This document shows, piece by piece, positions 7,500 to 31,200 of a stretch of 32,000 nt of DNA. Source of the DNA: an uncultured archaeon. GTDB taxonomy: Archaea > Asgardarchaeota > Thorarchaeia > Thorarchaeales > Thorarchaeaceae. How positions within the stretch are numbered: the stretch's first letter is position 1; each line of letters opens with the position of its first letter. The stretch lies in the NCBI GenBank assembly GCA_964354495.1, contig CAYHAA010000003.1:100507-132506 (forward strand), in the 5' to 3' direction. The translations under genes and the position numbers were made by a program. A model generated the notes under the pieces. The model was given only the letters and a program-made list of their open reading frames with translations, was not told the DNA's origin and did not search any database.

Positions 7500-7500
7500 T

Positions 7501-10500
7501 TCAGTCATCCTCCTTACGTACAACTCTCCTTGGGGTTGTCTTTGTGGTCTTCCTGGTTGTCGTCTTTGCACCTGTCTTCTTAGACGTCGGCTCAGGCACG
7601 CTGGTCCCAGTTTCATCCTTCTCTGGGGTAGTGGCCACGTCCTCTGCTACACGCTCTGTCGGCTCCGGCGGGGGTGCGGCAGAGGTCTTTGTAGATTCTC
7701 CAGACCCACTTCGTCCGATGGTTCGTCTGCCTGACCTCCGAATCCTGTATGTTTCGAATACAAAGACAGTGACCATCACGCCAAGGGCCACCGAGAGTGC
7801 CCCAATGATTGCCCATGGAAACTCGCCTGGCACCGACACTACAAAGTCAATCTCTGTGACATACTCCACTCCCTCGCGCGTCATACCGAAGACTTGCATG
7901 GTGTATGTGCCCGGCTGCCAGACAATGGCGTCATTATACCACTGGCGCAGACTGGCGCTGTATGTGAGCGTGTGGTTTTCGCTCCAGCTGCCTGTTGTGC
8001 GGTACCGGAAGCTCATCGAATCAAACGTGGTCAGGTTCACCACGCGTACAGCTGTTGTCGTATAGACGACTCCACCTGCAGTCGGTGTGAGGACCACCAT
8101 TCTGGTTGCGGCTGCGGCTGCGTCGGATACAGTGAATTGGATCTCCGTCAGACGCTCAGTACCATTGACGTCAAGACCAAACACTTGGAGATCATAGAGT
8201 CCTGGTGTAAGCGCAAGCGGATTGCTAGTCCATTTGTCTGTTGCACCGCTGTACACAAGCGTTTCGTTTCCGGACCATGTGCTGCCCGTCATATATCTGA
8301 ACCACATAGAGCCCATTGTTGTGTAGTTCATGACCTGAAGGGTCAGCTGAGTCCCGACAATGGAGCCACTAAGGGGCGACAAGACTCCAGCATAGGACGT
8401 GCTGAGTGGGTCCGTGCCAACTGCCACTTCAAAGCCGTCCGATACTCCATCTCCATCACTGTCCCCGGATGTCGGGGATGTCCCATAGATGCTTACTTCA
8501 TCACCATCCAAGAGACCATCCTCATCGCTGTCAGGATTCAGATATCCTCCGACTCTTGATGTTCCAACGACAAATGCCGTGCCGAGCTGGAACTCAAGCC
8601 CGTCCGGCAGACCGTCAAGGTCACTATCAAACTCCATTGTGTCAGGAGTACCATCACCGTCAGAGTCGTCATCAAGAGGATTACTTCCGTAGACCAAGAT
8701 CTCGCCGCCATCAGGCAGCCAGTCATCATCGCAGTCCCAGTCCGTCGCGGATGTGGGGTACAGAGCGGACTGTGCGACTATGTATGATGCAGGTCCAAGG
8801 TCAGTGCCAACCATGCCAATCGACCAGTTGTCAGGCGGCCAATCGCCATATGGATAGACCGGGATGAGAGTTTCATCATTGTCTAGCAGCCCGTCGCCAT
8901 CAGTGTCAGTCTTGAAGGCAGATGTGTTGTAGACCCAGACCTCATGCCAGTCGTCAATCGTGTCGTAGTCTGTGTCTATGTTCGTCGCGTTCGTATTGAA
9001 GACGACCACCTCCTGATAGTCGGTCAGGTTATCCCCGTCTGTGTCTGGCAGGACAGGGGATGTTTCATACCTGTAGACTAGAGATATCGAGAGGTATGGA
9101 TAGATTATGTCCGTCTGGTTGACAAGCATGAGTTCGTCACCATCGAGAAGAAGGTCTCCGTCGGTGTCCTCATCGAGAGGATCGAGAACCAGCGGTGCCA
9201 TCCATGGAATCTCGCCTGCGCCAAGATAGAGCTCTATGCCATCCGAGAGCCCATCTAGGTCCGAATCGGGTGCAGTCGCATTCGTCCCATAGATCATGAC
9301 CTCGTCATAGTCATTCATCGGCCATGTCATCTCACCCCACTCATTCGGGTCTTCGATACTGTCCAAGTCAGTATCCCAAGAGAGTGGGTCTGTATCGTAG
9401 AGCAGGACTTCTTGACCATCGGAGAGGCCATCCAGATCCGTATCGTAGGAGAACGGATCAGTGTAGTAGATGATAGCCTCCTCGAAGTCCGTGAGACCAT
9501 CGTTGTCGCCGTCCTCGTCCATTGGATCGGAACCGTACCATAGCACCTCGCGCCCATCACGTAGCCTATCACCGTCGCTATCATCAGACAGAGGGTTGCT
9601 GTGCCAGAGGAAGACTTCCTCACCGTCCTTTAGTGAGTCAAAGTCGCTATCAGGAATGAGTGGATTTGTGTGGTACGTGTAGAACTCGTCTGAGTCAGTA
9701 ATCATGTCCCCATCCGTGTCTGCACAACGTGGGTCACATCCAAGGAGTATCTCCTGCATGTCATGGAGGAGATCTCCGTCAGTGTCTGCCATATTTGGAT
9801 TGGTGTGATTGGAGTAGGGATTCAGCACCCCCTCAATCCCATCTATGAGACCATCGCCATCTGTGTCGCCATTCAACGGGTTCGTAGGAGGTGTCTGTGC
9901 GAGCTCGTAACCATCGGAGTTGAGCCAAATGCCTGCCTCAGGGATGCGGTCGTCTACACCGGTGTCACCGTCACTGTCTGGATTGCATGGATTTGTGAAG
10001 AGGACCTTGTCGTAGGGAAATCCATAGGAATCGTAGAGAATTGTCGGGATTCCTCTGACCTCAACGCCATCATTCATATCTTTCAGGAAGAGCAATGCCT
10101 GCTGGTCGACGACGCCATTGGTGAGCTGAAGGTAGGAATCGTCATCAGTGTCTGCATCGAGTGGGTGAGTGTACCCGTCATTGAATATGATTGGGAACGG
10201 GTCACTGAGAGTGTCATTGTAAAGGCTTGGCAGGCCATAGTAGGCCGCCATTGGTCCTTCGTCACCGTCCAAGATACCATCGCCATCTGTGTCGGGGTTC
10301 AGCGGGTCCGTATGGTCGTTGTACTCCACACCACCGATGACCACAGATGTGACAGTCGGCGTGACAGTGGTGATGTTCCACGAGGTGAAGACCTCGTAGT
10401 CGTCAGAGAGTGCATCGCCATCCGTGTCCTGACATAGTGGGTTAGTCAGGTATATCCGGACTTCTTCAAAGTCAGTCAGCGACTCGAAGTCACTGTCGGG

Positions 10501-18336: not shown

Positions 18337-20076
18337 CTACGAGGGAGTTGTAGTGATAGTGATATCATAGTAATCGCCTGAAAATTCCTCAACCGTGACT
18401 TGTATGTAATATTCTCCTGAATATTGTGCAAAGTATCCAATATATACATAACTTCCGACAAAGCTAAGAGTTAAGAGGTTCATGTTTGCGTCGAATAGTT
18501 TGATACGGAGGACTAAATCAGGATCGCTATAGGCTGTTGCAGTGATGAATAGGCCCGAATAGCAATTGAATTTGTACCAATCTTGGCCTGGAAAATAATT
18601 GCGGTCGCGTACCCAAAGAGGCTCATTAGGATGGCTATATGGATTTAGGGACCATGAGTAACTCAAAACCAAGGGTGCATCCGAACTTGAAGTTGAAATG
18701 TCTGAACTATAGAACGATACTTCATCCCACGCATCAACACGCCCAGTTCCATAATCATTATCAAAGCCTGGATGTGAATCGCCTGGCATATCTGTTGCAC
18801 TTGCCATTAGCAATTTCTTTACACGTGGATGAGGATGAGGATCACTAACGGGAACTCTGAGACTATAGTCCTTATCTAGCCACAACGCTGCCAATCCTGC
18901 TACAAAAGGAGTTGCATAGGATGTTCCTGAATCATGATTGTATTGATTTGTTGTTCCAGCTTCAGCCGCTATTATTTCATATCCTGATGCTAGTATGTCG
19001 GGTTTAATCCTACCATCATCACAAGGTCCTCGACTAGACCAACTAGCCAACGACCATTCACCTGCCCTAGGATCTATCGCTGCCCCAACTGTAATGGCAT
19101 ACTTAGCTGTCCCAGGGGGGGTTATTGTGCCCTCATCCTGACCAGAATTTCCAGCTGCTACACATACGACCAAACCATAATTCTCTACGAGCCAATCGAC
19201 AAACATGGCTTGTATGTCATATTCTCCAAAATGCTCAGGATTAGAAACACCCCACGAGCAACTCACAATCTCGATTCCGTATGCATAGCTATTCTCAGCT
19301 ACCCATTCTAGAGCCTCAATTGCATCTGATATATCATAATGTCCTGTAAAATCCATCATTTTTACTCCGACGAGGGCGGCATGCCTTGCGACACCACGAA
19401 AGGCTGGATTAGCATCACCGCTTCCAGCAGCTATACTAGCACAACGAGTACCATGTCCGTTATCATCATAAGCAGTAGAATGTTTCTTTCCTTCCCAATC
19501 GCCGCAAATATCTACCCACTTAATGACTTTATTACCATCTAGATCTTGGTGTTCTATGTCTATCCCTGTATCAAGAATAGCGATAACTATGTCATCCCTA
19601 GAATAGCTAGTCTTTGATCCATCCTTGTCGCCATCAATACTTGGGTCCTGTTGAGTCCAAACGTCCACATGAGTATATAGCCTCGCGGCATCGAGACAGG
19701 CTGAACCTCTTGAATTCATATCGATTCTTGTTACAAACGGCAGCTCGGCTAATCTCAATATTGCATTAGATGGAATATTAGCTCTAAACCCCCCCAGAGC
19801 AGGCCAAACATCTGTTATTATCATATCTGGGCTATGATTGTTAGCTTCATTTGCGTAATCAGGTTCACTTTTTTTATCACATGCAACTAAGATATCAATC
19901 ACTCTGTCATCTAACTGGTCATTATTGATATTTGATATCAGACTTCGTCCAAGTTTGGATACGATCTCATAGGATAGTTCACTATTCGTTTCAATTGTGG
20001 GTTGATCAATGACAATTGCGCATAAACCAAGCAAAACTAACCATACTAGTATTAGTCCGGTCAACTCTCTTTTCAA
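18337..20076 (-). CDS. Secreted subtilisin-like S8 serine protease with propeptide and C-terminal beta-sandwich (PPC-like)
   Basis: Catalytic triad motifs IAILDTGID, DDNGHGT and SGTSYATPFVAG, oxyanion VAAGN, and a signal peptide. TTG start with AAGGAGGGAG upstream. Confidence 0.92.
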   Translation of the reverse strand: MKRELTGLILVWLVLLGLCAIVIDQPTIETNSELSYEIVSKLGRSLISNINNDQLDDRVIDILVACDKKSEPDYANEANNHSPDMIITDVWPALGGFRANIPSNAILRLAELPFVTRIDMNSRGSACLDAARLYTHVDVWTQQDPSIDGDKDGSKTSYSRDDIVIAILDTGIDIEHQDLDGNKVIKWVDICGDWEGKKHSTAYDDNGHGTRCASIAAGSGDANPAFRGVARHAALVGVKMMDFTGHYDISDAIEALEWVAENSYAYGIEIVSCSWGVSNPEHFGEYDIQAMFVDWLVENYGLVVCVAAGNSGQDEGTITPPGTAKYAITVGAAIDPRAGEWSLASWSSRGPCDDGRIKPDILASGYEIIAAEAGTTNQYNHDSGTSYATPFVAGLAALWLDKDYSLRVPVSDPHPHPRVKKLLMASATDMPGDSHPGFDNDYGTGRVDAWDEVSFYSSDISTSSSDAPLVLSYSWSLNPYSHPNEPLWVRDRNYFPGQDWYKFNCYSGLFITATAYSDPDLVLRIKLFDANMNLLTLSFVGSYVYIGYFAQYSGEYYIQVTVEEFSGDYYDITITTTPS

Positions 20077-20077
20077 A

Positions 20078-20150
20078 CCACTCCCTCCTTATGATGAGTC
20101 ACATCATAATCTCATGAATCTATTGAATATGTTTTATATAAATTTATCCA
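20078..20150 (-). promoter_or_regulatory. Candidate archaeal TATA box and ribosome-binding site for the protease gene
   Basis: Minus strand reads GGATAAATTTATATAAAAC (about 20149-20131; purine-rich stretch then TTTATATA). A purine-rich AAGGAGGGAGTGG lies at 20090-20078, just before TTG 20076. Confidence 0.55.
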
Positions 20151-20517
20151 ACAAGGATTGTTGGCTATTCCGATATTAGTACTCCTTCTTTCATCATGAT
20201 TGATGGCGAACGATTTGCCGAATTGATGAATGGGAACAATGTTTGTGTAGTCACAGAATAATAGCACAAACCGAAATGTCCTGATATTGAGTGCTTTGAG
20301 GAGTAGCCACTGGCCCGGACTGATGGCTTTGTTTCGTTTCCCATCATAGAGGATTCTGAATATTATCATCCTTTATAATTCCCAAATTTCATCATAGAAA
20401 AAGCGCAAATTACAATAGTCGAATGTTAACGAGAATGTAAAGAACTAGATACTTAGGAAAGTACAGATTGCCTAGCGGTAAGGAACTACGAATAAGGGAT
20501 TAATACTCATACTGTTT

Positions 20518-21264
20518 CTACATGGTTTCAAGTGCTCGAACCAGTTCCGTAACCCTTGGTTTCGCAAAACTCAAGGCATTAGTTCCTGAACCGTACATTT
20601 GCTTATAGTCGTTCTCTCGGTATTGTCTATCGATACTTGCAGGAACTCGGATTATATCTCGCGTGGAGTCTGCCAAATGCATTGAAACCCATTTATATCT
20701 ATCACAAGCAACACTATACTTGTTGCTCAAGATTGAACGTAGATATGCTTCTTTTTGTCCTATTTTTTTGTCAAGTAGCAGTTGTTCAGCAAAGAAGATT
20801 GTCTTTAGTGAACTGAATATTCTGAAACAGCAACCTGTGAATTCTGCCCTTGCGTCAAGTAATCTACAAGACTCCTCGAGATCTTCAATACACTTCCATA
20901 GTAAACTCGTCGCCATATTAGGAATTAGCTTCACCTGAGTCCAAGATTCAGGTCCATGTAGAATCTCATAGTCTTTTAACGCACTCCAAAGAAAGAAGTT
21001 ATCTTTTCCTACTTTCGCTTTCATATATTCGGCTTCACTATATATTTTGCAGTCAAAGGAATTTTCACTAGTCTTACAGTTGTGCAACTGAACGATTTTT
21101 CGAACTTGACTTATGGATACATCATCATCCGTGATAATCACCAAATCGATATCGCTATCAGAAGTTTCACACCCCTTTGCCCAGCTTCCAACCAATATTA
21201 TGGACTTACATAATAGTAGAGCTTGCTCTATGAATGAATATAGCCTTGTTTTTTTGTTCTTCAT
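20518..21264 (-). CDS. Minimal-nucleotidyltransferase (Pol-beta/KNTase-like) domain fused to a helical, possibly HEPN-like, C-terminal domain
   Basis: IILVGSWAKG...SDSDIDLVII (GS and DxD motifs). The helical C-terminal half contains RYKWVSMH (R-x6-H). Confidence 0.75.
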   Translation of the reverse strand: MKNKKTRLYSFIEQALLLCKSIILVGSWAKGCETSDSDIDLVIITDDDVSISQVRKIVQLHNCKTSENSFDCKIYSEAEYMKAKVGKDNFFLWSALKDYEILHGPESWTQVKLIPNMATSLLWKCIEDLEESCRLLDARAEFTGCCFRIFSSLKTIFFAEQLLLDKKIGQKEAYLRSILSNKYSVACDRYKWVSMHLADSTRDIIRVPASIDRQYRENDYKQMYGSGTNALSFAKPRVTELVRALETM

Positions 21265-21364
21265 TCGTTTCCCTCATGCTTATCTGAATAGGTTTTCACT
21301 CGATTTATATCATTATAAAGTATGATTTCGAGAGTCGCGTACCGTATAGACACAAACTCAAGCG

Positions 21365-21484
21365 GTTATGAAGGGCGAAGATGTCAAGAAGATTGCAGCT
21401 GAGATCGAAGAGTTTCGCAAGGACTATCAGAAGGTGCATTTTGCCTTTGACACTCCAGCCTATGCTCATCTCAGGTTCAAGTGA
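21365..21484 (+). pseudogene. glyA: Headless duplicate of the last ~39 codons of glyA (contains the candidate attR core 21368-21399)
   Basis: Translates to VMKGEDVKKIAAEIEEFRKDYQKVHFAFDTPAYAHLRFK*, versus VMKGEDVKKIAAEVGEFRKNYQKVHFAFDTETPAYAHLRFK* in the full gene. Similarity stops just upstream of about 21361. Confidence 0.92.
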
Positions 21485-21508
21485 GGGCTCGACGGTGCTT
21501 GAGCCCTC
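21483..21508 (+). other. Stem-loop immediately after the glyA-tail stop
   Basis: GAGGGCTC-gacggtgctt-GAGCCCTC is a perfect 8-bp inverted repeat. There is no U-tract, so its function is unclear. Confidence 0.5.
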
Positions 21509-21522
21509 TGCGGGGGTATTCT

Positions 21523-21825
21523 ATGAAGATTGAAGATGCACAGGAAATGATGAGAAGAGTCTATCTTGAAAGGGACAGAGCCAGAGGCGTGAAGGGCACT
21601 CTTCAGAGAACAAAGGAAGAACTTGCAGAGCTTAGCAAGGCAATCCTCAAAGGTGACAATACAGCAGCTTTGGAAGAAGAGGTGGCTGACGTCTTTGCAT
21701 GGCTCTGCTCCCTTGCAAATCTTCTTACTATCGACGTGTCTGAGGCGTTCTACAAGAAGTACACAGATGCTTGTTCCAAGTGCAAGCAGAGTCCATGTTC
21801 TTGTCCGATAGAGCCCAGAGAATGA
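21523..21825 (+). CDS. mazG: MazG-like nucleotide pyrophosphohydrolase with C-terminal Cys cluster (intact copy)
   Basis: EELAEL...EEEVADVFAWL MazG motifs and CSKCKQSPCSCP tail. I chose ATG 21523 over the ORF-track start 21481 because it aligns with the first copy. Confidence 0.88.
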   Translation: MKIEDAQEMMRRVYLERDRARGVKGTLQRTKEELAELSKAILKGDNTAALEEEVADVFAWLCSLANLLTIDVSEAFYKKYTDACSKCKQSPCSCPIEPRE

Positions 21826-22019
21826 TAAGTCATAATGACTCTAGACTCAGCGATGTAAGTTATTGGAGTGTGCCTTGTCTGGATTCAATCAACACGCCCT
21901 TAGTGATGTGATGTCGTACTGGCGCTGTACGATGGATTGATAATATGGACTCTAAGCGTACAGAGTGTGCCTCAATAACGCGGCTATAGCAACTACTCTC
22001 CAACGGTACGTGATGATCG

Positions 22020-22985
22020 ATGATTCGAGTAGAGTCCAAGCAACTTCGTCCAGAAGACTGCAAAATCCTTGCAAGAATCACATCGTCTGCAAGAGAGAAG
22101 ACACCGCTGGAGTCAGGTAAGAGTGTCGAGGAAATCACTGCAGATATTGAGAAAATCTCTTCAAGTGATGAAGTCCAGATACTAGTCGCGCGGGATGATA
22201 ATGGGGTCATTCTTGGCTGGATCTCCTTCTATGTTGGTATTCCGCCCATGGCATTCATAGATGGATTCATGCCCATTGTGGATTCTGAATATGAACCTGA
22301 AAAGACAGCCCTGTCCTTAATTGAGGCCGCAAAGAGGGATATTGTTGGGCGAGGATATACAAGAATAGAGATTGAGATGAAACTTCAAACAGATGCACAC
22401 AGAGCATTATCAAAGGGGTTTGTCAACTGGTATGAAAAATGCGACTTCCGGTTTGCAGCAGAAGAGGCGCATATGAGATCGAATCTCACATCACTAAGCC
22501 TTCCACGCCTCCGTCCGCCCAAGAACTGCACTCTCAGGAAGCTCTCAGAGGTCTCCTACGAACAACTGGAGATAGCGGGATTTCAGACATTTGAGAACAG
22601 CAATGATGACCTGTTTCACTCAGAGAGTCGCGCAGAACAAGAGGTAGAAGTGAAGCATTTCTTTGAAGGGTCTAGACCGTTCATCGAGAATGCTTCATTT
22701 GCTCTTGAGAGAGATAGGAAGATTGTTGGATTCGTCATCACTAGAGTGAGAGATAATGAGGCAGAGATAGGACCAATCGGTCTCATTCCAGAAGCCAGAG
22801 GTCAAGGACTCGCGAGCTATCTGCTAGCCTATGCTCTGAAGAATCTAAGAAGCAGCGGTCTGAAAAGAGCAACTCTTGATATGTCAATAACCAATCTACC
22901 AGCCAAGATACTGTACAAGAAATACGGCTTTGAGGAACTGTACTGCCAACAATTCTATTTCTGGTCAACTGACATTTCTAAGTGA
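22020..22985 (+). CDS. Tandem (two-domain) GNAT-family N-acetyltransferase
   Basis: C-terminal domain has IGPIGLIPEARGQGLASYLL (acetyl-CoA motif A) and N..A..LYKKYGF. The N-terminal domain is a degenerate GNAT ending WYEKCDF. Confidence 0.88.
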   Translation: MIRVESKQLRPEDCKILARITSSAREKTPLESGKSVEEITADIEKISSSDEVQILVARDDNGVILGWISFYVGIPPMAFIDGFMPIVDSEYEPEKTALSLIEAAKRDIVGRGYTRIEIEMKLQTDAHRALSKGFVNWYEKCDFRFAAEEAHMRSNLTSLSLPRLRPPKNCTLRKLSEVSYEQLEIAGFQTFENSNDDLFHSESRAEQEVEVKHFFEGSRPFIENASFALERDRKIVGFVITRVRDNEAEIGPIGLIPEARGQGLASYLLAYALKNLRSSGLKRATLDMSITNLPAKILYKKYGFEELYCQQFYFWSTDISK

Positions 22986-23052
22986 GAAGAGTATGATTTC
23001 TGTTTCATAAAAAGACAGCACTCGATTGCTCTAGTTCAAAGTCAATGTAACA

Positions 23053-26000
23053 TCATTTTCCTTTTCTCCTGCGTATTATTCCGTCAACGCTTTTGGTTGT
23101 TCGAGCTATTTTATACTCGAGCCAAAGCCTCTCTGTTATCTGACCTGGAGAAAGCCCCCGTTCATGCATGGCCATAATCAAGTTAGCTTCATTTGATTGC
23201 ACCTTCTTACGGCTTGTAGAACGTTTCTCTATTATTTTCTGCAGATGATTGTGTCTTTCTTGACGGCTGCTTGCATGTTTGAAAAGAGGAAGAGAGTTTG
23301 CTTTGATAATATCACCATATCGATGGATTACCACTTTTGTTTTATCAATTTTCGAGTCTATATTGAAAGAAGCCAGAAGACGTTTTATGAAATGTTGATT
23401 TGTTTTGGATGCGATACCAACACGGAACGTCTTGAGAGAGGCATAGCCATCGCCATCAGAGAGTCCCTGAACAAAGGCGATACGCCATTCCCTTGGCATT
23501 TCAAGTATCCAATCGGACTGTACTGGAACCTCCTTCTTCTTATCGGAGGGATTCAAGCCAAGCAATGTCTTCTTCAGCCACATTAGAAAAGGGCTTGCTT
23601 CACTTTCCCACACCATGAATTCTCTTAGTTTACCTCTCTTTTTACGACGGCTGTTTTGCCTTCTCTCTGCTGATAGACCAAGCTTTCCTAGTGCATAGCA
23701 AAAAGCATCTCCAAGCTCCGCGCTCCAAGGATATTTCACACTTGCAGAGAGAATGACTTTAGCTGACAAATCAGTGTCGAATTTGAATGTCCCATCGGAG
23801 AAAAGAAGACCAAGAAGATACATTAGAGCAAGGGGCTTTGACACTTTCCCAAATTTCTGTTCGTACTTCTCCATTACTGGAGAATCTAGACTCTTGAGAT
23901 TATCTACCGCTTCAATGAGATCGTCTGGTGATGTAATACCAAGGGGAATCTGCATGAATTCTTCTGGCATGTTGAGCATTGGATTCAATCTGAAAGGCAG
24001 CCACCTCCAACCAGACCTGAGAGGTGTCAATGGAATCGAGGCTGCATATTTCGCATATGTGGGAAATTGTCTGGCATTCAACCATTCAGAAAGTGAACTT
24101 GTGCCAGCTTTTGTCTTTGCTGAGAGTGCCTTTCTTGTTCCACCGCGCACATATTCGTTAAGAAAACGGAAAAAATGTAGAGCATTCTGGATGTTGGTAT
24201 CGTGACTCTTCATTCGTCTTAATTCATCAATATAGTATAGCATCTCAAGGCGACAATTTGCTGCCTCCATACTTGAGACCCCATTAAGCTTGAGTAGAAT
24301 TTCGTTTACGCGACCAATTTTTTCAGATAATGAGGGCTCTTTATTGAGGTAATGGTACAATCTTGGTTTTAGACCTTCGCGAACAATTCTACGCACCCTT
24401 TTTGCAGGGATTTTGAGAGCTTTAGCGAGGCGGTGAATCTCATTACTAGTAATCAGATTTCTTCCATGGAATGCCAGATATACTGCCAAATGAATTTCAA
24501 TGCTTGACATTAGTTTTCGAAGATCACTACGATTTCTAGTTGAAGGATAGTGTGTGCCCAGAAGTGTATCCAATTGCTTACTGGTTTTGATTTCAATTCC
24601 ACCAATTTCTGGAACCCAAATGTTATTGCGATAGATGTTTCGTAGCTTCCTGACTTTTCGAATCAGAACAGGAACTTTCTCGCCACGTAACCATGAGATT
24701 ACTTCCATAATGGGAACATCATATTTCTCGCTGAGTCTTTCGATGTCTTCACGATGGTAGATTTCTCTGCTGTTCTGGAGTCTTACTCCAATCTCCCCTC
24801 GTTTTTTGGCATTCATAATCTCAATCCATGCTCTTGCATCCCTTTTCCACTGTTCAAAGGGAACCATCCGGTCGTCAAGTTCAAGCATAGGGTTATCCTT
24901 TAGAATTGTTTCCAACTCCTCCTTTGTATTTGGAGAATCTAGTTCTGTTTTGTGTCGAACAAGCTCCCAGAATGTCCAGTATGCCTCATGGTTGAGCACA
25001 TTCTTCAGAGCCCGAGGTTCTGCTTCACCATTTGCCCATTGCTCAGCCAACTCAGAATCGATGCCAAGTTCCTCTGCGACTCTCTCTAACTCCTCCTCGC
25101 CTTGCTCATTCAGAGCCATCTTGAACTTGAAAAACCTACGGATTTCCTCCATGACCTCCTCGTCTTCTAATAGGTGCTCCAGTCCGTGCTTTTCGATAAG
25201 CCTCTCAAAGTCATCCTCATCTTCTACAAGGCCACGTAGATACTCTCGAAAAGCCTCTTTCCATTCTTCAGGCATTTCTTCGTACAATTCAAGGAGTCTC
25301 TTCTTCCAGCACTTGTCTTCGACTGACTCTTCTTCACTCTCATCTTTCTTTTCTCTCGTTTCTTCAGGCTGTGAAACTTCGGCATCAACTTCCTTCTCAT
25401 TGACAACTAGGTGTTCTATCTCAGTAGATTGGCACTTCTCTGAAGATTCCGATGTTTTCTCATCAGCACAAGATTCATCATGCACTCTCTCGGGGTGAAT
25501 CTTCACCGTTTTTCCTGTTTCTTTTTCATTACAACCAGTTTCTACTAGCTCCTCATGCTCTTCCGATGAAATGCTTCCTTCAGGAAGATCTTTGATTGCC
25601 TCATCTCGAGGTGTGGTTTTCTCTTGGACACTCTCATCAGATGGCTCCCTTGCTTTCGAGTGTTCTTGTGTTTCGGGTGAGCCTTCAGTTTCTTTTTCTT
25701 GATGTGGGACATCGGTCTGTGTACTCTCTCCCTTAGGCTCACCTTCTGGTGATTCCATTGTTTCAGTAGCTGTTTCGGCTTGTTCGCTGTTTGGTTCTAG
25801 TTCCGCCTCCGTTGTTGATTCAGCCTCGGGTTTGGTCCTCACCTCGTACATCTGTCCGCTGCCATCATCGTAATGCGACAAGCTCTCAGCAGTGGAACTC
25901 TGACTACTCCGTTCCCCTTCCTCTCCTTCATTATCCGACTCCTGCTCGTTTTTTGACTCTTGAAGGTACTCCTCAATATCCCTGACGAACTGCTCGCGCC

Positions 26001-26487
26001 ACTGCTCCTTTGCATCCTCAGCGTCACCGCCTTTGTCTTCAAGGCTCTCCAGAAACTTTCTCTCCAGATCCTCGTACGAATCATTGTCAGCAAATTCCTC
26101 ACATTCCTCTTGTGTTCGTTCCAAATCCTCTTGCTTCTCAGACTCATGCTCTCTGGACGCTCCTTTCCTTTCCGATAGTTCTTGGATTGCATCTCTGACG
26201 CACTGCTGAGCTTCACCAGGAATCTCTCCATCTCCCTCCATATCCTCATCAGAGGCTGGTTGTTTACGTTCTTTCTCCTCGACATCAGCTCTTGCTTCTT
26301 TCACTACATCTTGAGCTGACATAGGTGGCTCATCTGACTCAGGTGCTTCAGTATCGTCTTCAATCTCACGTCGTAATTCTCTCATCATCTCTTGTGCCGA
26401 TTTGAGCATCTCGTCGGTTTCAGGGGGCTCGTCTGTGTCATGACTCTCGCGTCCTCTCCGATCGTGTTCCCCCCCTTCATGTGTCAT
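23053..26487 (-). CDS. 1144-aa protein: very acidic low-complexity N-terminus, four tandem HTH-containing units, double-motif LAGLIDADG endonuclease-like domain, terminal HTH
   Basis: LAGLIDADG-like helices LMYLLGLLFSDG (about 23786-23826) and IAFVQGLSDGDG (about 23443-23480). HTH-like segments at about 25030-25090, 24665-24745, 24360-24440 and 24055-24135. The first ~430 aa are rich in E/D/S. Confidence 0.8.
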   Translation of the reverse strand: MTHEGGEHDRRGRESHDTDEPPETDEMLKSAQEMMRELRREIEDDTEAPESDEPPMSAQDVVKEARADVEEKERKQPASDEDMEGDGEIPGEAQQCVRDAIQELSERKGASREHESEKQEDLERTQEECEEFADNDSYEDLERKFLESLEDKGGDAEDAKEQWREQFVRDIEEYLQESKNEQESDNEGEEGERSSQSSTAESLSHYDDGSGQMYEVRTKPEAESTTEAELEPNSEQAETATETMESPEGEPKGESTQTDVPHQEKETEGSPETQEHSKAREPSDESVQEKTTPRDEAIKDLPEGSISSEEHEELVETGCNEKETGKTVKIHPERVHDESCADEKTSESSEKCQSTEIEHLVVNEKEVDAEVSQPEETREKKDESEEESVEDKCWKKRLLELYEEMPEEWKEAFREYLRGLVEDEDDFERLIEKHGLEHLLEDEEVMEEIRRFFKFKMALNEQGEEELERVAEELGIDSELAEQWANGEAEPRALKNVLNHEAYWTFWELVRHKTELDSPNTKEELETILKDNPMLELDDRMVPFEQWKRDARAWIEIMNAKKRGEIGVRLQNSREIYHREDIERLSEKYDVPIMEVISWLRGEKVPVLIRKVRKLRNIYRNNIWVPEIGGIEIKTSKQLDTLLGTHYPSTRNRSDLRKLMSSIEIHLAVYLAFHGRNLITSNEIHRLAKALKIPAKRVRRIVREGLKPRLYHYLNKEPSLSEKIGRVNEILLKLNGVSSMEAANCRLEMLYYIDELRRMKSHDTNIQNALHFFRFLNEYVRGGTRKALSAKTKAGTSSLSEWLNARQFPTYAKYAASIPLTPLRSGWRWLPFRLNPMLNMPEEFMQIPLGITSPDDLIEAVDNLKSLDSPVMEKYEQKFGKVSKPLALMYLLGLLFSDGTFKFDTDLSAKVILSASVKYPWSAELGDAFCYALGKLGLSAERRQNSRRKKRGKLREFMVWESEASPFLMWLKKTLLGLNPSDKKKEVPVQSDWILEMPREWRIAFVQGLSDGDGYASLKTFRVGIASKTNQHFIKRLLASFNIDSKIDKTKVVIHRYGDIIKANSLPLFKHASSRQERHNHLQKIIEKRSTSRKKVQSNEANLIMAMHERGLSPGQITERLWLEYKIARTTKSVDGIIRRRKGK

Positions 26488-29400
26488 TTACCGTGCTCTC
26501 CGTCCAAGAATCTGGAAAATCCCTCAAACTGCCCAAGATTTTCGGGCGTGCCATATTCCAACACTAAGAACTTGAGTGCTTGAAGGACGGAGCTCCAACT
26601 ACCATCACCATGTGTGTTTGATATGGTCTGAAGCTGTCTTGCTAAAGTGGAATAGTCTTGCTCCTTTAGACACCTCTCACAGAATCTAGCAATGAGGGGT
26701 GTCTTGATTATTCGTTGAATCTCACTAGATCTCGATACGGTAGGTTCCAGAACTTGCAGATTGTCGTTGTCTTTCTTCTTGCCATGTTCGAGTTGAATGG
26801 CACTATCATCAGGAATTGGTTCATGCTCTTGCAGATGGGGATTCCTCAGGATGATTGGAGTCATGTGTTTCTTGAGGGCTTTGTCTGACACTTCATTGTC
26901 AGGAAATGCACCCTGGATGAATCTGCTGATAGTGAACATCTTGACATTCTTCGGCACACCCTCATGCTGCAAATAGACGACTGCTTCCCCGACTTGCATC
27001 CCTCCAATATGATCCATCTGAGCCTCCGTACATCTCGAATGTCTGCCAACTAGCCTCCGATCTTCACTGTCTGAGAGCGCATGGATTATCAGGTTGACAA
27101 CAATCTTCAGTGCCTGAGGTACCAGGGTCGTTGGTGACTGGTCAGCAATGACCACTCCAAGGCCTGGCCCGCCACCAACACGTAGCAATTCGATGAATGC
27201 GTTTACAGCATGTAGCCTTGCATCTGAGTTGGCCTCGCCGCCAGAGTTCGTAGAACCCAAGAGATAATGGGCCTCCTCCAGTATCAGAAGATTCGTGACA
27301 TTCTTTGTAGGATTTGCCAACTTGTATTCACAGATGCCAGCAGTAAGAATTCCCATGAGGAGAATCTTATCGCTCTCTGACAGAGCATCCATATCGATGA
27401 TGGTCGGGTGGGAGAGAAGTTCCTCTATCGTGATTCCTGTCTTAGTATTGAACATCTCCACAAGTGTATATTTCCTCAAAATGCTTCTGATTCTTTCAAC
27501 TAGAGCCCCAAAGACATTGCTTGAGACCTCATTACCATACGATAACCTTTCATCTTCTTCCTCTAGAGCCTCAATCAGATCCGTGAGGAGAATCGCTCTT
27601 CCTTTGACGTTCTTCTTGAGATTCCAGCCGCATCTTCTGTACATTGTATAGACCACTTTTTCAAAATGCATAGAGATGACGGGGTCGTTTGGCAGCCAGA
27701 GCGTCCATGCCTGAACAATGCGGTCTGCCCATTTTGCCAGAGGGACGTTCTTGGGCGGATTCCATATGTTCAGCAAGAGGTTAGCGATGTCACTCCTGCC
27801 ACATGTAAAGAATCGAATATCGTGGAAGATGTTCAGCAAGAATCGCATCTCGTAGCTCTTCGAAGGCACAAGAAGGATTGGCGTTACCCCCAGTGTGATA
27901 GCCTGTCCAAAGATGCTCATTATAGAAGTAGACTTTCCAGAACGCGTGTTTCCAAGGACCGCCAAATGCATGTTCAGATTCCTGATTTCAGTTGTCACAT
28001 ATGCCTTTGACAGAATGTTTCCGTTCTCATCAATCGGGTGTCCGAAGAATAGGACCGGCTTTCGCTTAACCCACTTGACCTTTGATAGAACGAGTGAGGT
28101 TACTCGGTCAGACTCCTGTTTAACTAAATCCGGCCCTTCACCGACCTCTTTTGTTCCAGATGAGAATTTTTCCCGTTTTGTGACCCGGATATTTGCATCT
28201 TTTCGAGAGATGACTGTGTACACTGTTACTTCATCAGCTGTCAGGATTGTGGACCTACCAACCTGATGGCATGCAAGGAGTCTTTCAACATCCTTTTTTC
28301 TACTCCTGTACTCGATTCGAAACTCTTCATGGTCATTATCAGGTCGAATACCGCCTATTAATGGCACCACAAGACGTCTGACATCAAAGTCTGCTTTAGA
28401 GATATCAGCGGCCCATGAAATAGCTGTTACAGTTGCTTTGTATAGATTCGTATTGGACAACCGTCGAATCTGCCTCTCAAGAAGTTCAGCCTCTTTCTTC
28501 GCATCCAAGTTGATAGAGGTCCTGGACTCCTGATGACTCCCCATCCAGCTAGACTGCTCCCGCGAGATGGTGGTTTCAGATTTCTCAACAAGTTCCTTGA
28601 AACGTTTCTCAAGTGTCTTGATCTTTGACTTGCTCATTTTCATCGGTTCAATGAAGACCTGATAGACACCGTTCTCAAGGTCCTGAAAGACCCCCGTCAT
28701 TGCTTCTAAGGGGTCTTTCCTCTGCTTCTCATCGAGTATTGAGAGTGGAGCACCGGTCATTATTGCAGCACAGCCCTTCTCATTATCATCCAGTCTGATC
28801 TCGGGGAACTTACCTACAGGGTCTAGTCGGAATCCTGGCAGGTTGTGTTGAAGAGCGTCATTCAGGACAGCCAGTTGATGCTTGAGGAGATCTTCATCAG
28901 ACGACCATGTGAAGTAGAAGATGCGTGTGTTCCACTTTGCGCGCTGCATTCGAAAACCAAAGGGGGTAGATGTCAAGGTTCTCGCTACACTGTGAAAGCG
29001 CTCAATCACATCCAAGGAATTATCCCTCATGTTGGCAAAGGCGTAGTCGTGAGGAATTTCCTTGAGTTCAAGTGCAAGTACACTGGTTGATTTCTGTCGG
29101 AATAGTTGGAGCCCCATAGTGCTTGTTTTGATTGTTGTTTCTTTCGCGGATGAGGCGACTAGTCCCGAGTGCAGAGAATCTTTTTGTGTAGGCCAGAGCC
29201 AAGCCAGTGTGAGACCTAGGGAAATGGCCGCTGCCACGACCGCATAGAACGCGTTTCCAAACAAGGGAAAAGGAATGAATGTCAATTGCCAGAGAAGGCT
29301 AAGGATTATTGTTGCCAGACCAATTGCAGATCCTCCGATAATCGAGTATGCCCACACTCGCGCATTCTTGTTCTCTAATAGAACAATCGCTCCAATGAAA

Positions 29401-29570
29401 AACACAATACCTGAGAGTAAGAGAGTAGGACCCACCCAATCTGATGGAACCCAAAAGGTTGTCAGAAGTAGAAACTGAACTCCAACCGCTGGAAGGGCTG
29501 TAAGGAATATGATGCCCATGAATTTGACTATCCAAATCGCCCATGGAGCTGAGTCATTCTCTCCTGTCAT
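26484..29570 (-). CDS. Membrane-anchored HerA/FtsK-superfamily (DUF87/VirB4/VirD4-like) P-loop ATPase with four N-terminal TM helices
   Basis: Walker A AVLGNTRSGKS, Walker B LLILEEAH, and a downstream GLGVVIADQSP motif typical of HerA/FtsK. Four hydrophobic segments in aa ~14-125. Its stop overlaps the next start (ATGA, 26484-26487). Confidence 0.88.
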   Translation of the reverse strand: MTGENDSAPWAIWIVKFMGIIFLTALPAVGVQFLLLTTFWVPSDWVGPTLLLSGIVFFIGAIVLLENKNARVWAYSIIGGSAIGLATIILSLLWQLTFIPFPLFGNAFYAVVAAAISLGLTLAWLWPTQKDSLHSGLVASSAKETTIKTSTMGLQLFRQKSTSVLALELKEIPHDYAFANMRDNSLDVIERFHSVARTLTSTPFGFRMQRAKWNTRIFYFTWSSDEDLLKHQLAVLNDALQHNLPGFRLDPVGKFPEIRLDDNEKGCAAIMTGAPLSILDEKQRKDPLEAMTGVFQDLENGVYQVFIEPMKMSKSKIKTLEKRFKELVEKSETTISREQSSWMGSHQESRTSINLDAKKEAELLERQIRRLSNTNLYKATVTAISWAADISKADFDVRRLVVPLIGGIRPDNDHEEFRIEYRSRKKDVERLLACHQVGRSTILTADEVTVYTVISRKDANIRVTKREKFSSGTKEVGEGPDLVKQESDRVTSLVLSKVKWVKRKPVLFFGHPIDENGNILSKAYVTTEIRNLNMHLAVLGNTRSGKSTSIMSIFGQAITLGVTPILLVPSKSYEMRFLLNIFHDIRFFTCGRSDIANLLLNIWNPPKNVPLAKWADRIVQAWTLWLPNDPVISMHFEKVVYTMYRRCGWNLKKNVKGRAILLTDLIEALEEEDERLSYGNEVSSNVFGALVERIRSILRKYTLVEMFNTKTGITIEELLSHPTIIDMDALSESDKILLMGILTAGICEYKLANPTKNVTNLLILEEAHYLLGSTNSGGEANSDARLHAVNAFIELLRVGGGPGLGVVIADQSPTTLVPQALKIVVNLIIHALSDSEDRRLVGRHSRCTEAQMDHIGGMQVGEAVVYLQHEGVPKNVKMFTISRFIQGAFPDNEVSDKALKKHMTPIILRNPHLQEHEPIPDDSAIQLEHGKKKDNDNLQVLEPTVSRSSEIQRIIKTPLIARFCERCLKEQDYSTLARQLQTISNTHGDGSWSSVLQALKFLVLEYGTPENLGQFEGFSRFLDGEHGK

Positions 29571-30115
29571 CAGCCATCCATCCTACTAGTGTATTGTTCA
29601 CAGCCTTTATTCTCCTCCAAAGACCAATGGAGAATATGAGGAGAAAGAGTGAAGTAACTTTGGGCGATGATAGAAGTCCGATATGCGGTGCTTATGCAGA
29701 TGAAAAGAACATTAGAATCATCTGTGCAGTCAAATCGAGTCTATTAGCCAGCAAATCTGGATTAGAAAGCCTATTGTCATTTTTCTGTATGTATAAAGTG
29801 TCCATACTGCAACATATGAGCGCACCTTCCCGTACTCATAGACCTCAACACACACCGTTGTTTCTCGATCCTCTGCAAGATTCTCGTGTCTGGTGCTATT
29901 GGTAAAAAACACAACTGTATCAGCTCCACTCTCCAAAGAAACCCAAACGATTAGGCCATCGCCCTGAGCTAAATCATACTCATAGAACTCGCGCTACAAG
30001 GGACTCAAAGAAACGTGCCAAGTTCCAAGTATGAAGGCATTGGTTTCCACATGAAGCATTGCGGCAAAACAGATGGATATTGCTATTGACAAACGGTTCT
30101 TCTATTCGTACCCAT
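29554..30115 (-). pseudogene. Probable heavily degraded gene for an exported/membrane-anchored beta-domain protein
   Basis: Piecing frames together gives MGTNRR/LSIAISICFAAMLHV... then in-frame TAG (29994-29996), then REFYEYDLAQGDGLIVWVSLESGADTVVFFTN..., then after a frameshift SA*APHIGL...TSLFLLIFSIGLWRRIKA...DDRRE*. It ends overlapping the ATPase start by 17 nt. At least two frameshifts and two stops are required. Confidence 0.35.
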
Positions 30116-30222
30116 ATCGTTTACCTTCAGTATTCCCAATTTGCTTCTTCCGTATAGCGGTCATTACACATTCGGTTTTCACAAGAAGTACTCGGTGGCT
30201 GAGATAGAATGAGAGTCCGTCT

Positions 30223-30710
30223 TTAGTTTCTATTTGCCAGAACAGAACGTAACTCATCTATCTGGTTTTGTATCTCTTCTGACAATCTATCTCCGTCTTC
30301 CGATATTGCCAACATCCTGAATTGCGTAAGATCGTCAATCAGATATTGAACGCCATCATAATATCCTCTCATTACCACATCACGAAATCTATCGCTTCTT
30401 GCAGCATCCACGCGCCTCTTGATTTGAACCAAACTTCTTCTTTTTTGAGTAGAAAGCTTGAATAATCCAACCAAGGATTTCTATACCGTTTCTCGCTAGC
30501 TGCAAAGCTTAGGCCGATTAGTACGAGTAACACTACCAAGACTATTATAATTGAATACCCTTCTACTGGTGTTTGCGTCGCCAGACTAGCACCTACAAGA
30601 GCAGCCCCTGCTACTGCAATTAATGCTTCTACCATTTTAACAATATAGTAAATCTGTTGTATTCGTGATACTGGAATGGCAGGAATTACTGGACTTCTAT
30701 TATCACTCAT
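30223..30710 (-). pseudogene. Frameshifted two-TM membrane protein of unknown function (ORF-track ORFs 30372-30758 and 30223-30474 are probably one gene)
   Basis: ATG 30710 follows GGAGTTGAAG. Two TM helices, then EKRYR. The second frame continues KSLVGLFKLSTQKRRSLVQIKRR...ELRSVLANRN*. One extra base between about 30442 and 30482 would join them. Confidence 0.6.
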
Positions 30711-30910
30711 TACTTCTTCAACTCCTACTCGCATCCCACTAAATGAAGCAATTTTCAATCTAAGATATAATGATTATCATTTACGGCTCTTAGTTCTCTC
30801 CGGTTTATCTGAGAAAAAGAGCAATATAACTCCGTGTTCGTTGAATCATTAGAAGGCTTAATAAACACAACATCGTCTGAAGGCAGAGTGCTCAAGAGAA
30901 GGTAGATACA

Positions 30911-31105
30911 ATGCCGAAGACCGCGAAAAAGAAAAAAGGAAAGCGCGGGGACGGACCGATGCCGAGCGGTGGAGCCGGCTTGATCAGATTCTTTGAAGAC
31001 GAAACCCCAGGCATCAAGGTGGGTCCCACTGTCGTCGTGATAATCGCAAGTATTCTTCTGGTCGCCACGGTGATTGCACACATATTCTACCAATTAACAA
31101 ACTGA
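30911..31105 (+). CDS. sec61b: Preprotein translocase subunit Sec61beta (archaeal SecG)
   Basis: Basic N-terminus, GAGLIRFFEDETPGIKVGP signature and a single C-terminal TM helix. Confidence 0.93.
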   Translation: MPKTAKKKKGKRGDGPMPSGGAGLIRFFEDETPGIKVGPTVVVIIASILLVATVIAHIFYQLTN

Positions 31106-31200
31106 GCAGGTCAATCTGAGTCACAGATTCAGATGAGCCATGCCCTAAGTGTTATAAGAGACTCTAAGCCGAATCGCACAGTCAAGACAGGTGACTCGCA

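Follow-up and report, generated by a model that had tools for sequence, protein, structure and literature searches.

RESULTS

A conserved two-gene module in Asgard archaea. The subject of this study is a pair of genes in a 32,000-nucleotide stretch of DNA (here called the window; contig C3 of genome G000, G000:C3:100507-132506) from an uncultured Asgard archaeon of the family Thorarchaeaceae. The upstream gene encodes a membrane ATPase, and the gene that overlaps its 3' end encodes a large, acidic, nuclease-like protein, which we call the partner. We are confident that the two form a real, conserved, accessory module of Asgard archaea, in which a membrane-anchored motor of the VirB4/CedB class is coupled to a DNA-binding partner with an exchangeable cassette, and that the copy in the window lies in a homing hotspot. 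The module is apparently undescribed, and literature searches found no published description of the pair. Its parts, in coordinates of the window, are as follows.

26484-29570, minus strand: ATPase gene P0001, 1028 amino acids (aa) (open reading frame [ORF] list, Pfam DUF87, AlphaFold2, fold matches)
29196-29570, minus strand: ATPase aa 1-125, four transmembrane (TM) helices (AlphaFold2, hydropathy, CagE alignment from residue 9)
28206-29093, minus strand: ATPase aa 160-455, alpha/beta N-domain that aligns with the N-terminal domain of VirB4/TraC/ConE (structure alignments)
26901-28073, minus strand: ATPase aa 500-890, P-loop motor domain, with Walker A at 540-548 and Walker B at about 761-768
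26487-26885, minus strand: ATPase aa 896-1028, helical C-terminal domain (AlphaFold2)
23053-26487, minus strand: partner gene P0002, 1144 aa (ORF list, sequence)
25291-26487, minus strand: partner aa 1-399, conserved N-terminal peptide (MTHEGGEHDRR...), then an acidic low-complexity region (sequence)
24643-25290, minus strand: partner aa 400-615, helical module M1 (phmmer, protein comparison)
23938-24642, minus strand: partner aa 616-850, helical repeats resembling helix-turn-helix (HTH) units, first part of the exchangeable cassette (model, paralogs)
23209-23937, minus strand: partner aa 851-1093, double-motif LAGLIDADG endonuclease domain (motifs LLGLLFSDG and VQGLSDGDG)
23056-23208, minus strand: partner aa 1094-1144, C-terminal three-helix HTH (Myb/Tc3/resolvase-like)
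24671-29811, no strand assigned: conserved core unit, comprising the ATPase with 240 nt upstream of it and the first ~605 codons of the partner (blastn, protein comparison)

The start codon of the partner overlaps the stop codon of the ATPase in an ATGA (read ...GGT AAA TGA / ATG ACA CAT), and the positions, lengths, and overlap of the two ORFs agree with a preliminary description of this DNA that had been made from its letters. Throughout the genus, a charged ORF of 560 to 1300 aa with an acidic N terminus comes after each ATPase paralog, on the same strand, and a scan of one genome per species found the same arrangement at loci of Thor-, Hermod- and Promethearchaeota. The deduplicated set comprises 42 ATPase ORFs, 7 of them cut by contig ends, which leaves 35 that can be evaluated. 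An automatic adjacency test, which looks for a downstream ORF whose start lies between -160 and +300 nt, is passed by 33 of these 35; the remaining two (L031 and L035) fail by an artefact of threshold or start codon, and the partner is present in both. A large partner with an acidic N terminus thus lies directly 3' of the ATPase at 35/35 distinct Asgard loci. The preliminary description had proposed a coupled, conserved pair and had named rare adjacency of the homologs as the observation that would count against it; with adjacency at all of the evaluable loci, that objection falls away. Aspartate and glutamate together account for 21 to 42% of the first 200 partner residues at nearly all loci (16% in L033), and the N-terminal motif of the partner recurs across most subtypes, including the type that carries NUMOD3 and HNH domains.

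The module is patchily distributed. The ATPase family is present in 12/24 sampled genomes of the genus and 38/76 genomes of the family, with at most six matches per genome; among other Asgard families, full-length matches come only from f12 and partial ones from a few more. Variable presence of the locus among relatives, which had been proposed as a check, is borne out by the genus-wide survey of its site and by the comparison with genome G012 (both below). Genome G000 itself holds paralogous gene pairs upstream on C3 and on C4, C10, C16, and C33. Decayed ATPase genes also occur: on C4 of G000, the C-terminal 262 aa are left 5' of an intact 1268-aa partner (L028 10579-11367); on C8 of G014, the gene is split into ORFs of 460 and 658 aa (L031 6209-9714); and on C9 of G003, only residues ~359 to 454 survive (L140 3974-4261).

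The ATPase is a VirB4/CedB-class motor by fold. The AlphaFold2 model of the ATPase, built from 38 homologs (mean predicted local distance difference test score [pLDDT], 80.5), has five parts, namely, TM helices in residues 9-125 (9-37, 43-67, 70-98, and 102-125, in agreement with hydropathy), a disordered linker, an alpha/beta domain (163-452), a P-loop domain (~500-890), and a helical C-terminal domain (896-1027). Residues G540, G545, and K546 of Walker A and E766 of Walker B are invariant among the 38 homologs. The best Foldseek match in the PDB is TrwK/VirB4, over ~916 columns, and the TrwK chain 8rtd_O covers residues 159-910 of the model. Among the reviewed (Swiss-Prot) AlphaFold models, CedB ranks first (8.5e-21), followed by TraC (1e-20) and then by YddE/ConE, VirB4, TrbE, and CagE. 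The alignments with VirB4, TrbE, and YddE/ConE begin at residues 159 to 162, those with these three and with TraC span the cytoplasmic part from ~159 to 935, and that with CagE, a VirB3-VirB4 fusion, begins at residue 9. HerA structures match only residues 503-935, the P-loop part, at about 1e-13, and the entire cytoplasmic part aligns with the VirB4 class alone.

Sequence models place the protein less precisely. Pfam gives a DUF87/HerA match at residues 524-743, and searches of the ESM Atlas group the ATPase with unnamed DUF87/HerA_C clusters. PF03135, the VirB4 N-domain, has no match in the ATPase or in the genome. The ATPase scores 29.4 bits against the NCBIfam CedD model NF053655 (cut-off, 600), 19 to 29 bits against the HerA models (cut-offs, 800 to 970; NF040937, 27; NF040819, 19), 29 bits against the antiphage HerA model NF042943 (cut-off, 800), and 15 against the FtsK_SpoIIIE model (cut-off, 24). 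The PADLOC models of HerA and mad8 give partial matches only (E values, 3e-11 to 1e-8). On the predicted structure, the ATPase is thus a VirB4/CedB-class motor, yet it lies outside every curated family. The label "HerA/FtsK type" of the preliminary description lacks precision, as the resemblance to HerA and FtsK is confined to the P-loop domain; its placement of the protein among membrane DNA translocases stands, with the nearest folds being VirB4/TraC/CagE and the archaeal DNA importer CedB.

The C-terminal domain is the fastest-evolving part of the ATPase, with 72% identity where the P-loop domain has 91% and ~28% where the P-loop domain has 55 to 67%. We considered whether it covaries with the type of partner and rejected the idea, as it is the fastest-evolving part with or without M1. 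Bacterial and thaumarchaeal relatives share the P-loop domain only (25 to 31% identity), are soluble, and are found in unrelated operons, and for these reasons we discarded them as a clue to function. A complex prediction for ATPase residues 460-1028 with partner M1 (aa 400-620) scored 0.00, which counts neither way.

The partner combines an acidic N-terminal region with a nuclease end. A model of partner residues 400-1144 (pLDDT, 93.9) contains a LAGLIDADG domain followed by the terminal HTH. The LAGLIDADG domain has the single-chain double-domain fold, with two helices that bear terminal acidic residues, and both catalytic Asp residues are kept in 20/20 of the fused and free-standing relatives examined; Pfam recognizes LAGLIDADG_3 at residues 1000-1050. 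Residues 400-850 give a confident helical model without a clear PDB match, and an ESM Atlas search with them returned no usable match. A PDB sequence search with the partner found nothing, and PADLOC gave no partner match. P0002 showed neither a signal peptide nor a TM helix, and no trafficking domain of a known type. Pfam detects no Hint or intein domain in it, in line with the earlier remark that intein splicing motifs are absent, and the cassette occurs as the C terminus of a protein or as a free-standing intergenic gene. The LAGLIDADG fold with both Asp residues and the HTH, together with the HTH, HNH, and NUMOD3 domains of other partners, marks the partner as a DNA-binding protein, probably with the ability to cut.

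The nuclease end of the partner is exchangeable. At the closest orthologous locus (L045), the ATPase is 85% identical to that of the window. By blastn, the two loci have one DNA block in common, 24671-29811, at 81% identity, and nothing else. The partner proteins are 64% identical over residues 1-616; where the window partner has HTH-like repeats and a LAGLIDADG domain after residue ~605 to 616, the L045 partner has two HTHs and two HNH-like units. M1 is 64 to 68% identical in L045 and L046. The closest paralog in the same genome, on C10, has an ATPase with 54% identity followed by a 618-aa partner in which an HNH domain accompanies seven or more NUMOD3 motifs (4.5e-54). Across 28 partners, Pfam recognizes LAGLIDADG in 7, HNH in 2 (one with NUMOD3), and HTH families in many, and the remaining C-terminal domains are unrecognized.

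An exhaustive phmmer search with the partner yielded 324 representatives. Many are standalone HTH-LAGLIDADG proteins of ~530 to 630 aa, and others (P0120, P0127, P0130-132, and more) have only the M1 block in common and carry other C termini. The region of HTH-like repeats recurs both in paralogs and in free-standing genes. Judged from these sequence comparisons, the partner is modular, and its C-terminal nuclease end is an exchangeable cassette from free-standing homing endonuclease genes. The LAGLIDADG nuclease seen in the preliminary description is therefore present as an intact domain but is not a fixed feature of the partner: the closest relatives have HNH types, and the domain also occurs as a free-standing gene, resembling a homing endonuclease gene, at the chromosomal site of the window pair. 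Given the exchange of cassettes and this free-standing gene, one may regard the nuclease as being, in part, an element that hitch-hikes or confers mobility.

The module occupies a hypervariable intergenic slot. In the genus, the conserved backbone runs SHMT, MazG, slot, Sec61-beta-like gene, and S1-domain gene. The slot and its borders in the window are as follows.

21852-30841, no strand assigned: 9.0-kb insertion with the GNAT gene, partner, ATPase, and small ORFs (blastn against G012, genus survey)
21481-21825, plus strand: MazG-like gene, left border of the slot (Pfam MazG; beside SHMT in 20 genus genomes)
30843-30866, plus strand: conserved element GAATCATTAGAAGGCTTAATAAACA (...ATTAGAAGAGTTAATAAA...), right edge of the variable slot (genus comparison)
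30911-31105, plus strand: small tail-anchored gene, right border of the slot (MPKTAKKKK...GLIRFFED..., one C-terminal TM helix; conserved across the genus), which from its motif we take to be a putative Sec61-beta

In the closest relative, G012, the flanks are 87 to 95% identical, and 93 bp of intergenic DNA stands where the window has the 9.0-kb insertion. The contents of the slot across the genus are as follows.

Empty (MazG to the next conserved gene about 70 to 170 bp): G012, G018, G024, G011, G013
Free-standing HTH-LAGLIDADG gene: G002, G004, G007, G009, G015, G016, G023
Last 30 to 50 codons of the LAGLIDADG gene only: G017, G020
Remnant of a window-type ATPase (52% identical): G003
Cassette fused behind ATPase and partner core: G014 (canonical orientation), G000 (inverted)
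Unrelated cargo: G005, G006, G008, G022, G042

The free-standing genes keep a constant orientation, and their stop codon abuts the right flank. The element with ATTAGAAGAGTTAATAAA directly follows the MazG stop codon in empty sites and the LAGLIDADG stop codon in G004 and G014. The ATPases of G000 and G014 are only 26 to 30% identical, yet the cassettes fused behind them belong to the same local lineage (44 to 50% identical). These comparisons of sequence and position are consistent with a LAGLIDADG cassette that behaves like a homing endonuclease gene at one fixed site, and by the same evidence the window copy sits in a hypervariable homing hotspot.

Two other accounts of the site were rejected. 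One is an island bordered by a tRNA or integrase gene, neither of which was found at the borders: no tRNA lies in the window, ARAGORN and Rfam found none beside the paralogs (intron-bearing tRNAs could be missed by them), and the tyrosine recombinase model PF00589 has no match in G000 (97.7% complete), with all 14 control genomes matched. The other is a defense island context as support for a defense function, since the other cargo of the slot is miscellaneous; in relatives it includes permease, TPR, beta-helix, propeller, and hydrolase genes. In five genus genomes, an ORF of 487 to 492 aa lies beside MazG in the slot (L141 5337-6800, L133 2721-4184, L137 6321-7784, L138 3158-4636, and L139 2753-4231); the one in L141 (G005) is an amino acid permease, and the other four are equated with it by size and position alone.

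Neighboring genes and other observations. The neighbors of the pair in the window are genes for GNAT, MazG, nucleotidyltransferase, and S8 protease proteins and small ORFs, and the next gene 3' of the partner is the GNAT gene, in convergent orientation. Profile scans of the neighborhood agree with the earlier statement that no integrase, relaxase, NurA, Mre11, or Rad50 is encoded nearby; NurA, Mre11, and Rad50 are absent from the window. The interval 21800-31200 holds no polytopic membrane ORF and one nonconserved ORF with two TM helices (30372-30758). The 112-aa antisense ORF at 30755-31093 is probably spurious.

No third gene is conserved across 23 loci. Four loci have a highly charged gene of 196 to 261 aa, without a Pfam match, directly 3' of the partner (L036 1-645, L037 12203-12793, L038 6098-6691, and L039 12923-13708). 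It goes with partner subtypes that lack a recognizable nuclease and may encode either an immunity-like protein or one more subunit. Several copies of the module have TPR-repeat genes nearby (L030 4812-5711, L025 2979-4349, and L029 4496-7450), one of them immediately 5' of the ATPase of NUMOD3-HNH type and another, for an nSTAND NTPase-TPR protein, next to the free-standing LAGLIDADG gene on C33.

To the left of the slot, a 5.1-kb block (16267-21360) contains a 397-aa gene, an ArsR-like HTH gene, an S8 subtilase gene, an 85-aa ORF, and a nucleotidyltransferase gene. It is flanked by diverged (69%) direct repeats (15853-16266 and 21361-21780) that correspond to the SHMT 3' end and MazG, and from this arrangement it looks like an insertion via recombination with another lineage's copy of the locus. 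The same four genes (window 16469-21264) stand on C4 of G000 (L028 695-4973) beside the other LAGLIDADG-bearing partner of the genome, with identities of 48% for the S8 protease, 50% for the ArsR-HTH protein, 32% for the 397-aa protein, and 33% for the nucleotidyltransferase, and they may be part of a larger recurring neighborhood. The left half of the window (3-14235, minus strand) is filled by two giant ORFs, one of more than 2538 aa with FG-GAP/beta-propeller repeats and one of 2244 aa with bacterial TSP3 repeats, which probably encode surface proteins. In a thaumarchaeotal metagenome-assembled genome, tandem HerA/DUF87-type ATPases of 1040 and 830 aa occur with PKD-domain and two-TM proteins (L089 5488-13653) and may mark a different membrane DNA-handling locus.

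DISCUSSION

Our findings lead us to propose, tentatively and by analogy with known transfer systems, that this module has a site-specific cutter from which a membrane translocase receives DNA. The ATPase would be a membrane-anchored, probably hexameric motor of the VirB4/CedB class with a variable helical tail, and the partner a translationally coupled cytoplasmic adaptor composed of an N-terminal peptide, an acidic disordered stretch of ~400 aa, M1, HTH-like repeats, and the nuclease cassette. The partner would recognize and cut a specific DNA site, remain bound to the ATPase, and present the DNA to the membrane motor, which would then translocate it at or across the membrane, in the manner of conjugation or Ced-type exchange, with the cutter standing in for a relaxase. 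The nuclease cassette would also explain the position in a homing hotspot and the spread of the module by co-conversion. We infer that the two proteins form a complex and that DNA is cleaved, as well as what is transported and in which direction.

We favor this reading because motors of the VirB4 class are known to serve in effector export as well as in conjugation, Ced import, and the uptake and release of DNA, and because archaeal transfer systems lack a relaxase. Archaeal conjugation and the Ced and Ted systems have VirB4-like motors and no known relaxase (PMC9905601), and a substitute nuclease is therefore plausible.

Several observations weigh against a transfer function. Two conserved genes are little for a transfer machine. 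PF04610 (TrbL/VirB6) is absent from the genome, and no VirB6- or CedA-like channel, pilin, or other part of a type IV secretion system (T4SS) or Ced system is found in the 9-kb insertion or recurs across loci. The sequence of the ATPase misses the curated cut-offs for VirB4, CedD, and HerA. Close relatives of the module were found on neither viral contigs nor plasmids, with a single distant P-loop match on the viral contigs. Finally, about two thirds of the partners carry no recognizable nuclease, and because of this, cutting may not be essential.

A doubtful but serious competitor is that the pair defends against mobile elements, with a membrane HerA-like translocase that engages foreign DNA and either feeds the nuclease partner or is guided by it, in the manner of HerA-NurA, Sir2-HerA, DUF4297-HerA, TdpAB, or DndFGH, and with cassettes that diversify under an arms race. 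The P-loop domain is equally close to defense HerAs, and the distribution of the module is defense-like. Defense HerAs, in contrast, have no TM anchor and no VirB4-like N-domain, alignment over both domains is confined to proteins of the VirB4/CedB class, the antiphage HerA model gives the ATPase 29 bits against a cut-off of 800, and the other slot cargo in relatives is not defense-like. Moreover, homing-type nucleases, with their long specific sites, are unusual as defense effectors.

It is unlikely, on balance, that the nuclease ends are selfish and stand outside the core mechanism, with a DNA-related core limited to the ATPase and the N-terminal ~605 aa of the partner. Homing genes fused in frame at the 3' end would use the expression of the host gene and spread the module by co-conversion. 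This explanation is compatible with the other readings rather than exclusive of them, and much of the slot and cassette evidence speaks for it, namely, the sharp break of homology at aa ~605 between loci that are 81% identical, the classical cycle of invasion, decay, and loss at one site (free-standing gene in 7, empty in 5, C-terminal remnants in 2), the fusion of the divergent G000 and G014 ATPase subtypes (26 to 30% identical) to the same local cassette lineage, and the lack of a recognizable nuclease in most partners. On the other hand, in-frame fusion recurs with three nuclease types at several loci, the frames stay intact for more than 1000 codons, and cassette and core (M1) have HTH-like repeats of one kind, suggestive of a single functional array for DNA binding.

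A bolder version of the cutter-to-motor proposal, which we regard as improbable, is a minimal DNA transfer device in which a homing endonuclease replaces the relaxase, that is, a "conjugative homing element." Via its acidic tail and M1, the cutter would be held on a VirB4/CedB-like pump with a membrane anchor of its own, DNA would move between Asgard cells, and in the recipient the same nuclease would open the empty site, so that the module and flanking genes would be copied in.

Very improbable is an exported polymorphic nuclease toxin, for which the VirB4-like ATPase would secrete the partner into competitors and C-terminal toxin cassettes would be swapped: ATPases of the FtsK/VirB4 type do power export by type VII secretion systems and T4SSs, but there is no immunity gene after the partner (the next gene is the convergent GNAT gene), no signal or known trafficking domain, and no channel component, and LAGLIDADG and NUMOD3-HNH proteins are site-specific homing nucleases that are not known as toxins. 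C-terminal swapping with standalone cassettes, which the partner does show, is a hallmark of polymorphic toxin systems, in an account that has 0 mentions of LAGLIDADG (PMC3482391).

How DNA transfer starts in archaea is an open question, as the motors are VirB4-like and a relaxase is unrecognized (PMC9905601). In the module described here, a motor of the VirB4/CedB class always comes with a DNA-binding protein that often bears a site-specific nuclease, and this makes the protein a candidate, open to testing, for the DNA-processing component that is missing; the archaea concerned are the lineage nearest to eukaryotes. Regardless of what the module does, it is a natural example of three kinds of homing cassette captured in frame by a cellular gene, and a single intergenic site displays all stages of the homing cycle, from empty through free-standing and fused to decayed. 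If the defense explanation were true, the module would represent a new membrane-anchored type with swappable sequence-specific nucleases, which would be of interest as programmable DNA-targeting scaffolds.

Among known systems, the VirB4 family (VirB4, TraC, TrbE, ConE/YddE, and CagE) aligns with the alpha/beta N-domain and P-loop C-domain of the ATPase over ~770 residues (E values, 1e-16 to 1e-20), and the N-terminal TM segment of the VirB3-VirB4 fusion CagE resembles that of the ATPase. Identity to the family is only 9 to 11%, however, PF03135 is not matched, and the ATPase has an extra helical C-terminal domain; in addition, no VirB2, VirB3, VirB6, VirB8, or VirD4 genes are near or detectable, and the conserved neighbor is instead a giant DNA-binding/nuclease protein. 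The Ced and Ted systems are likewise archaeal, they lack a relaxase (PMC9905601), and CedB is the best match of the ATPase among reviewed structures (8.5e-21). CedD of Saccharolobus has a layout of TM segment, N-domain, and HerA/VirB4-like ATPase (PMC11868833), which the ATPase shares. In contrast to Ced and Ted, the module has no CedA/TedA channel gene and no CedA1/TedC pilin gene at the locus, and whereas these are conserved chromosomal systems of Thermoproteota, the module is patchy, multicopy, hotspot-borne, and found in Asgard archaea.

HerA-nuclease pairs (HerA-NurA, Sir2-HerA, DUF4297-HerA, TdpAB, and DndH) differ in both components: the N terminus of the ATPase is not a HAS barrel alone but a VirB4-like N-domain with four TM helices, and in place of NurA, Sir2, or DUF4297 there is an acidic, HTH-rich partner of 1144 aa with a homing-type nuclease. 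Unlike free-standing LAGLIDADG enzymes, the cassette here is fused behind ~850 acidic and helical residues and coupled to a membrane ATPase; unlike intron- and intein-borne ones, it lies outside introns and inteins (no Hint domain); and unlike WhiA, it retains the catalytic residues. Polymorphic toxins resemble the module in that LAGLIDADG, HTH-HNH, and NUMOD3-HNH cassettes stand behind related N termini and also exist as standalone cassettes, but the module has no immunity gene directly downstream and no secretion or trafficking domain in the partner. In concept, the module is matched by FtsK/SpoIIIE and the Streptomyces TraB protein, which likewise join a membrane hexameric P-loop pump to sequence-specific DNA recognition with very few genes.

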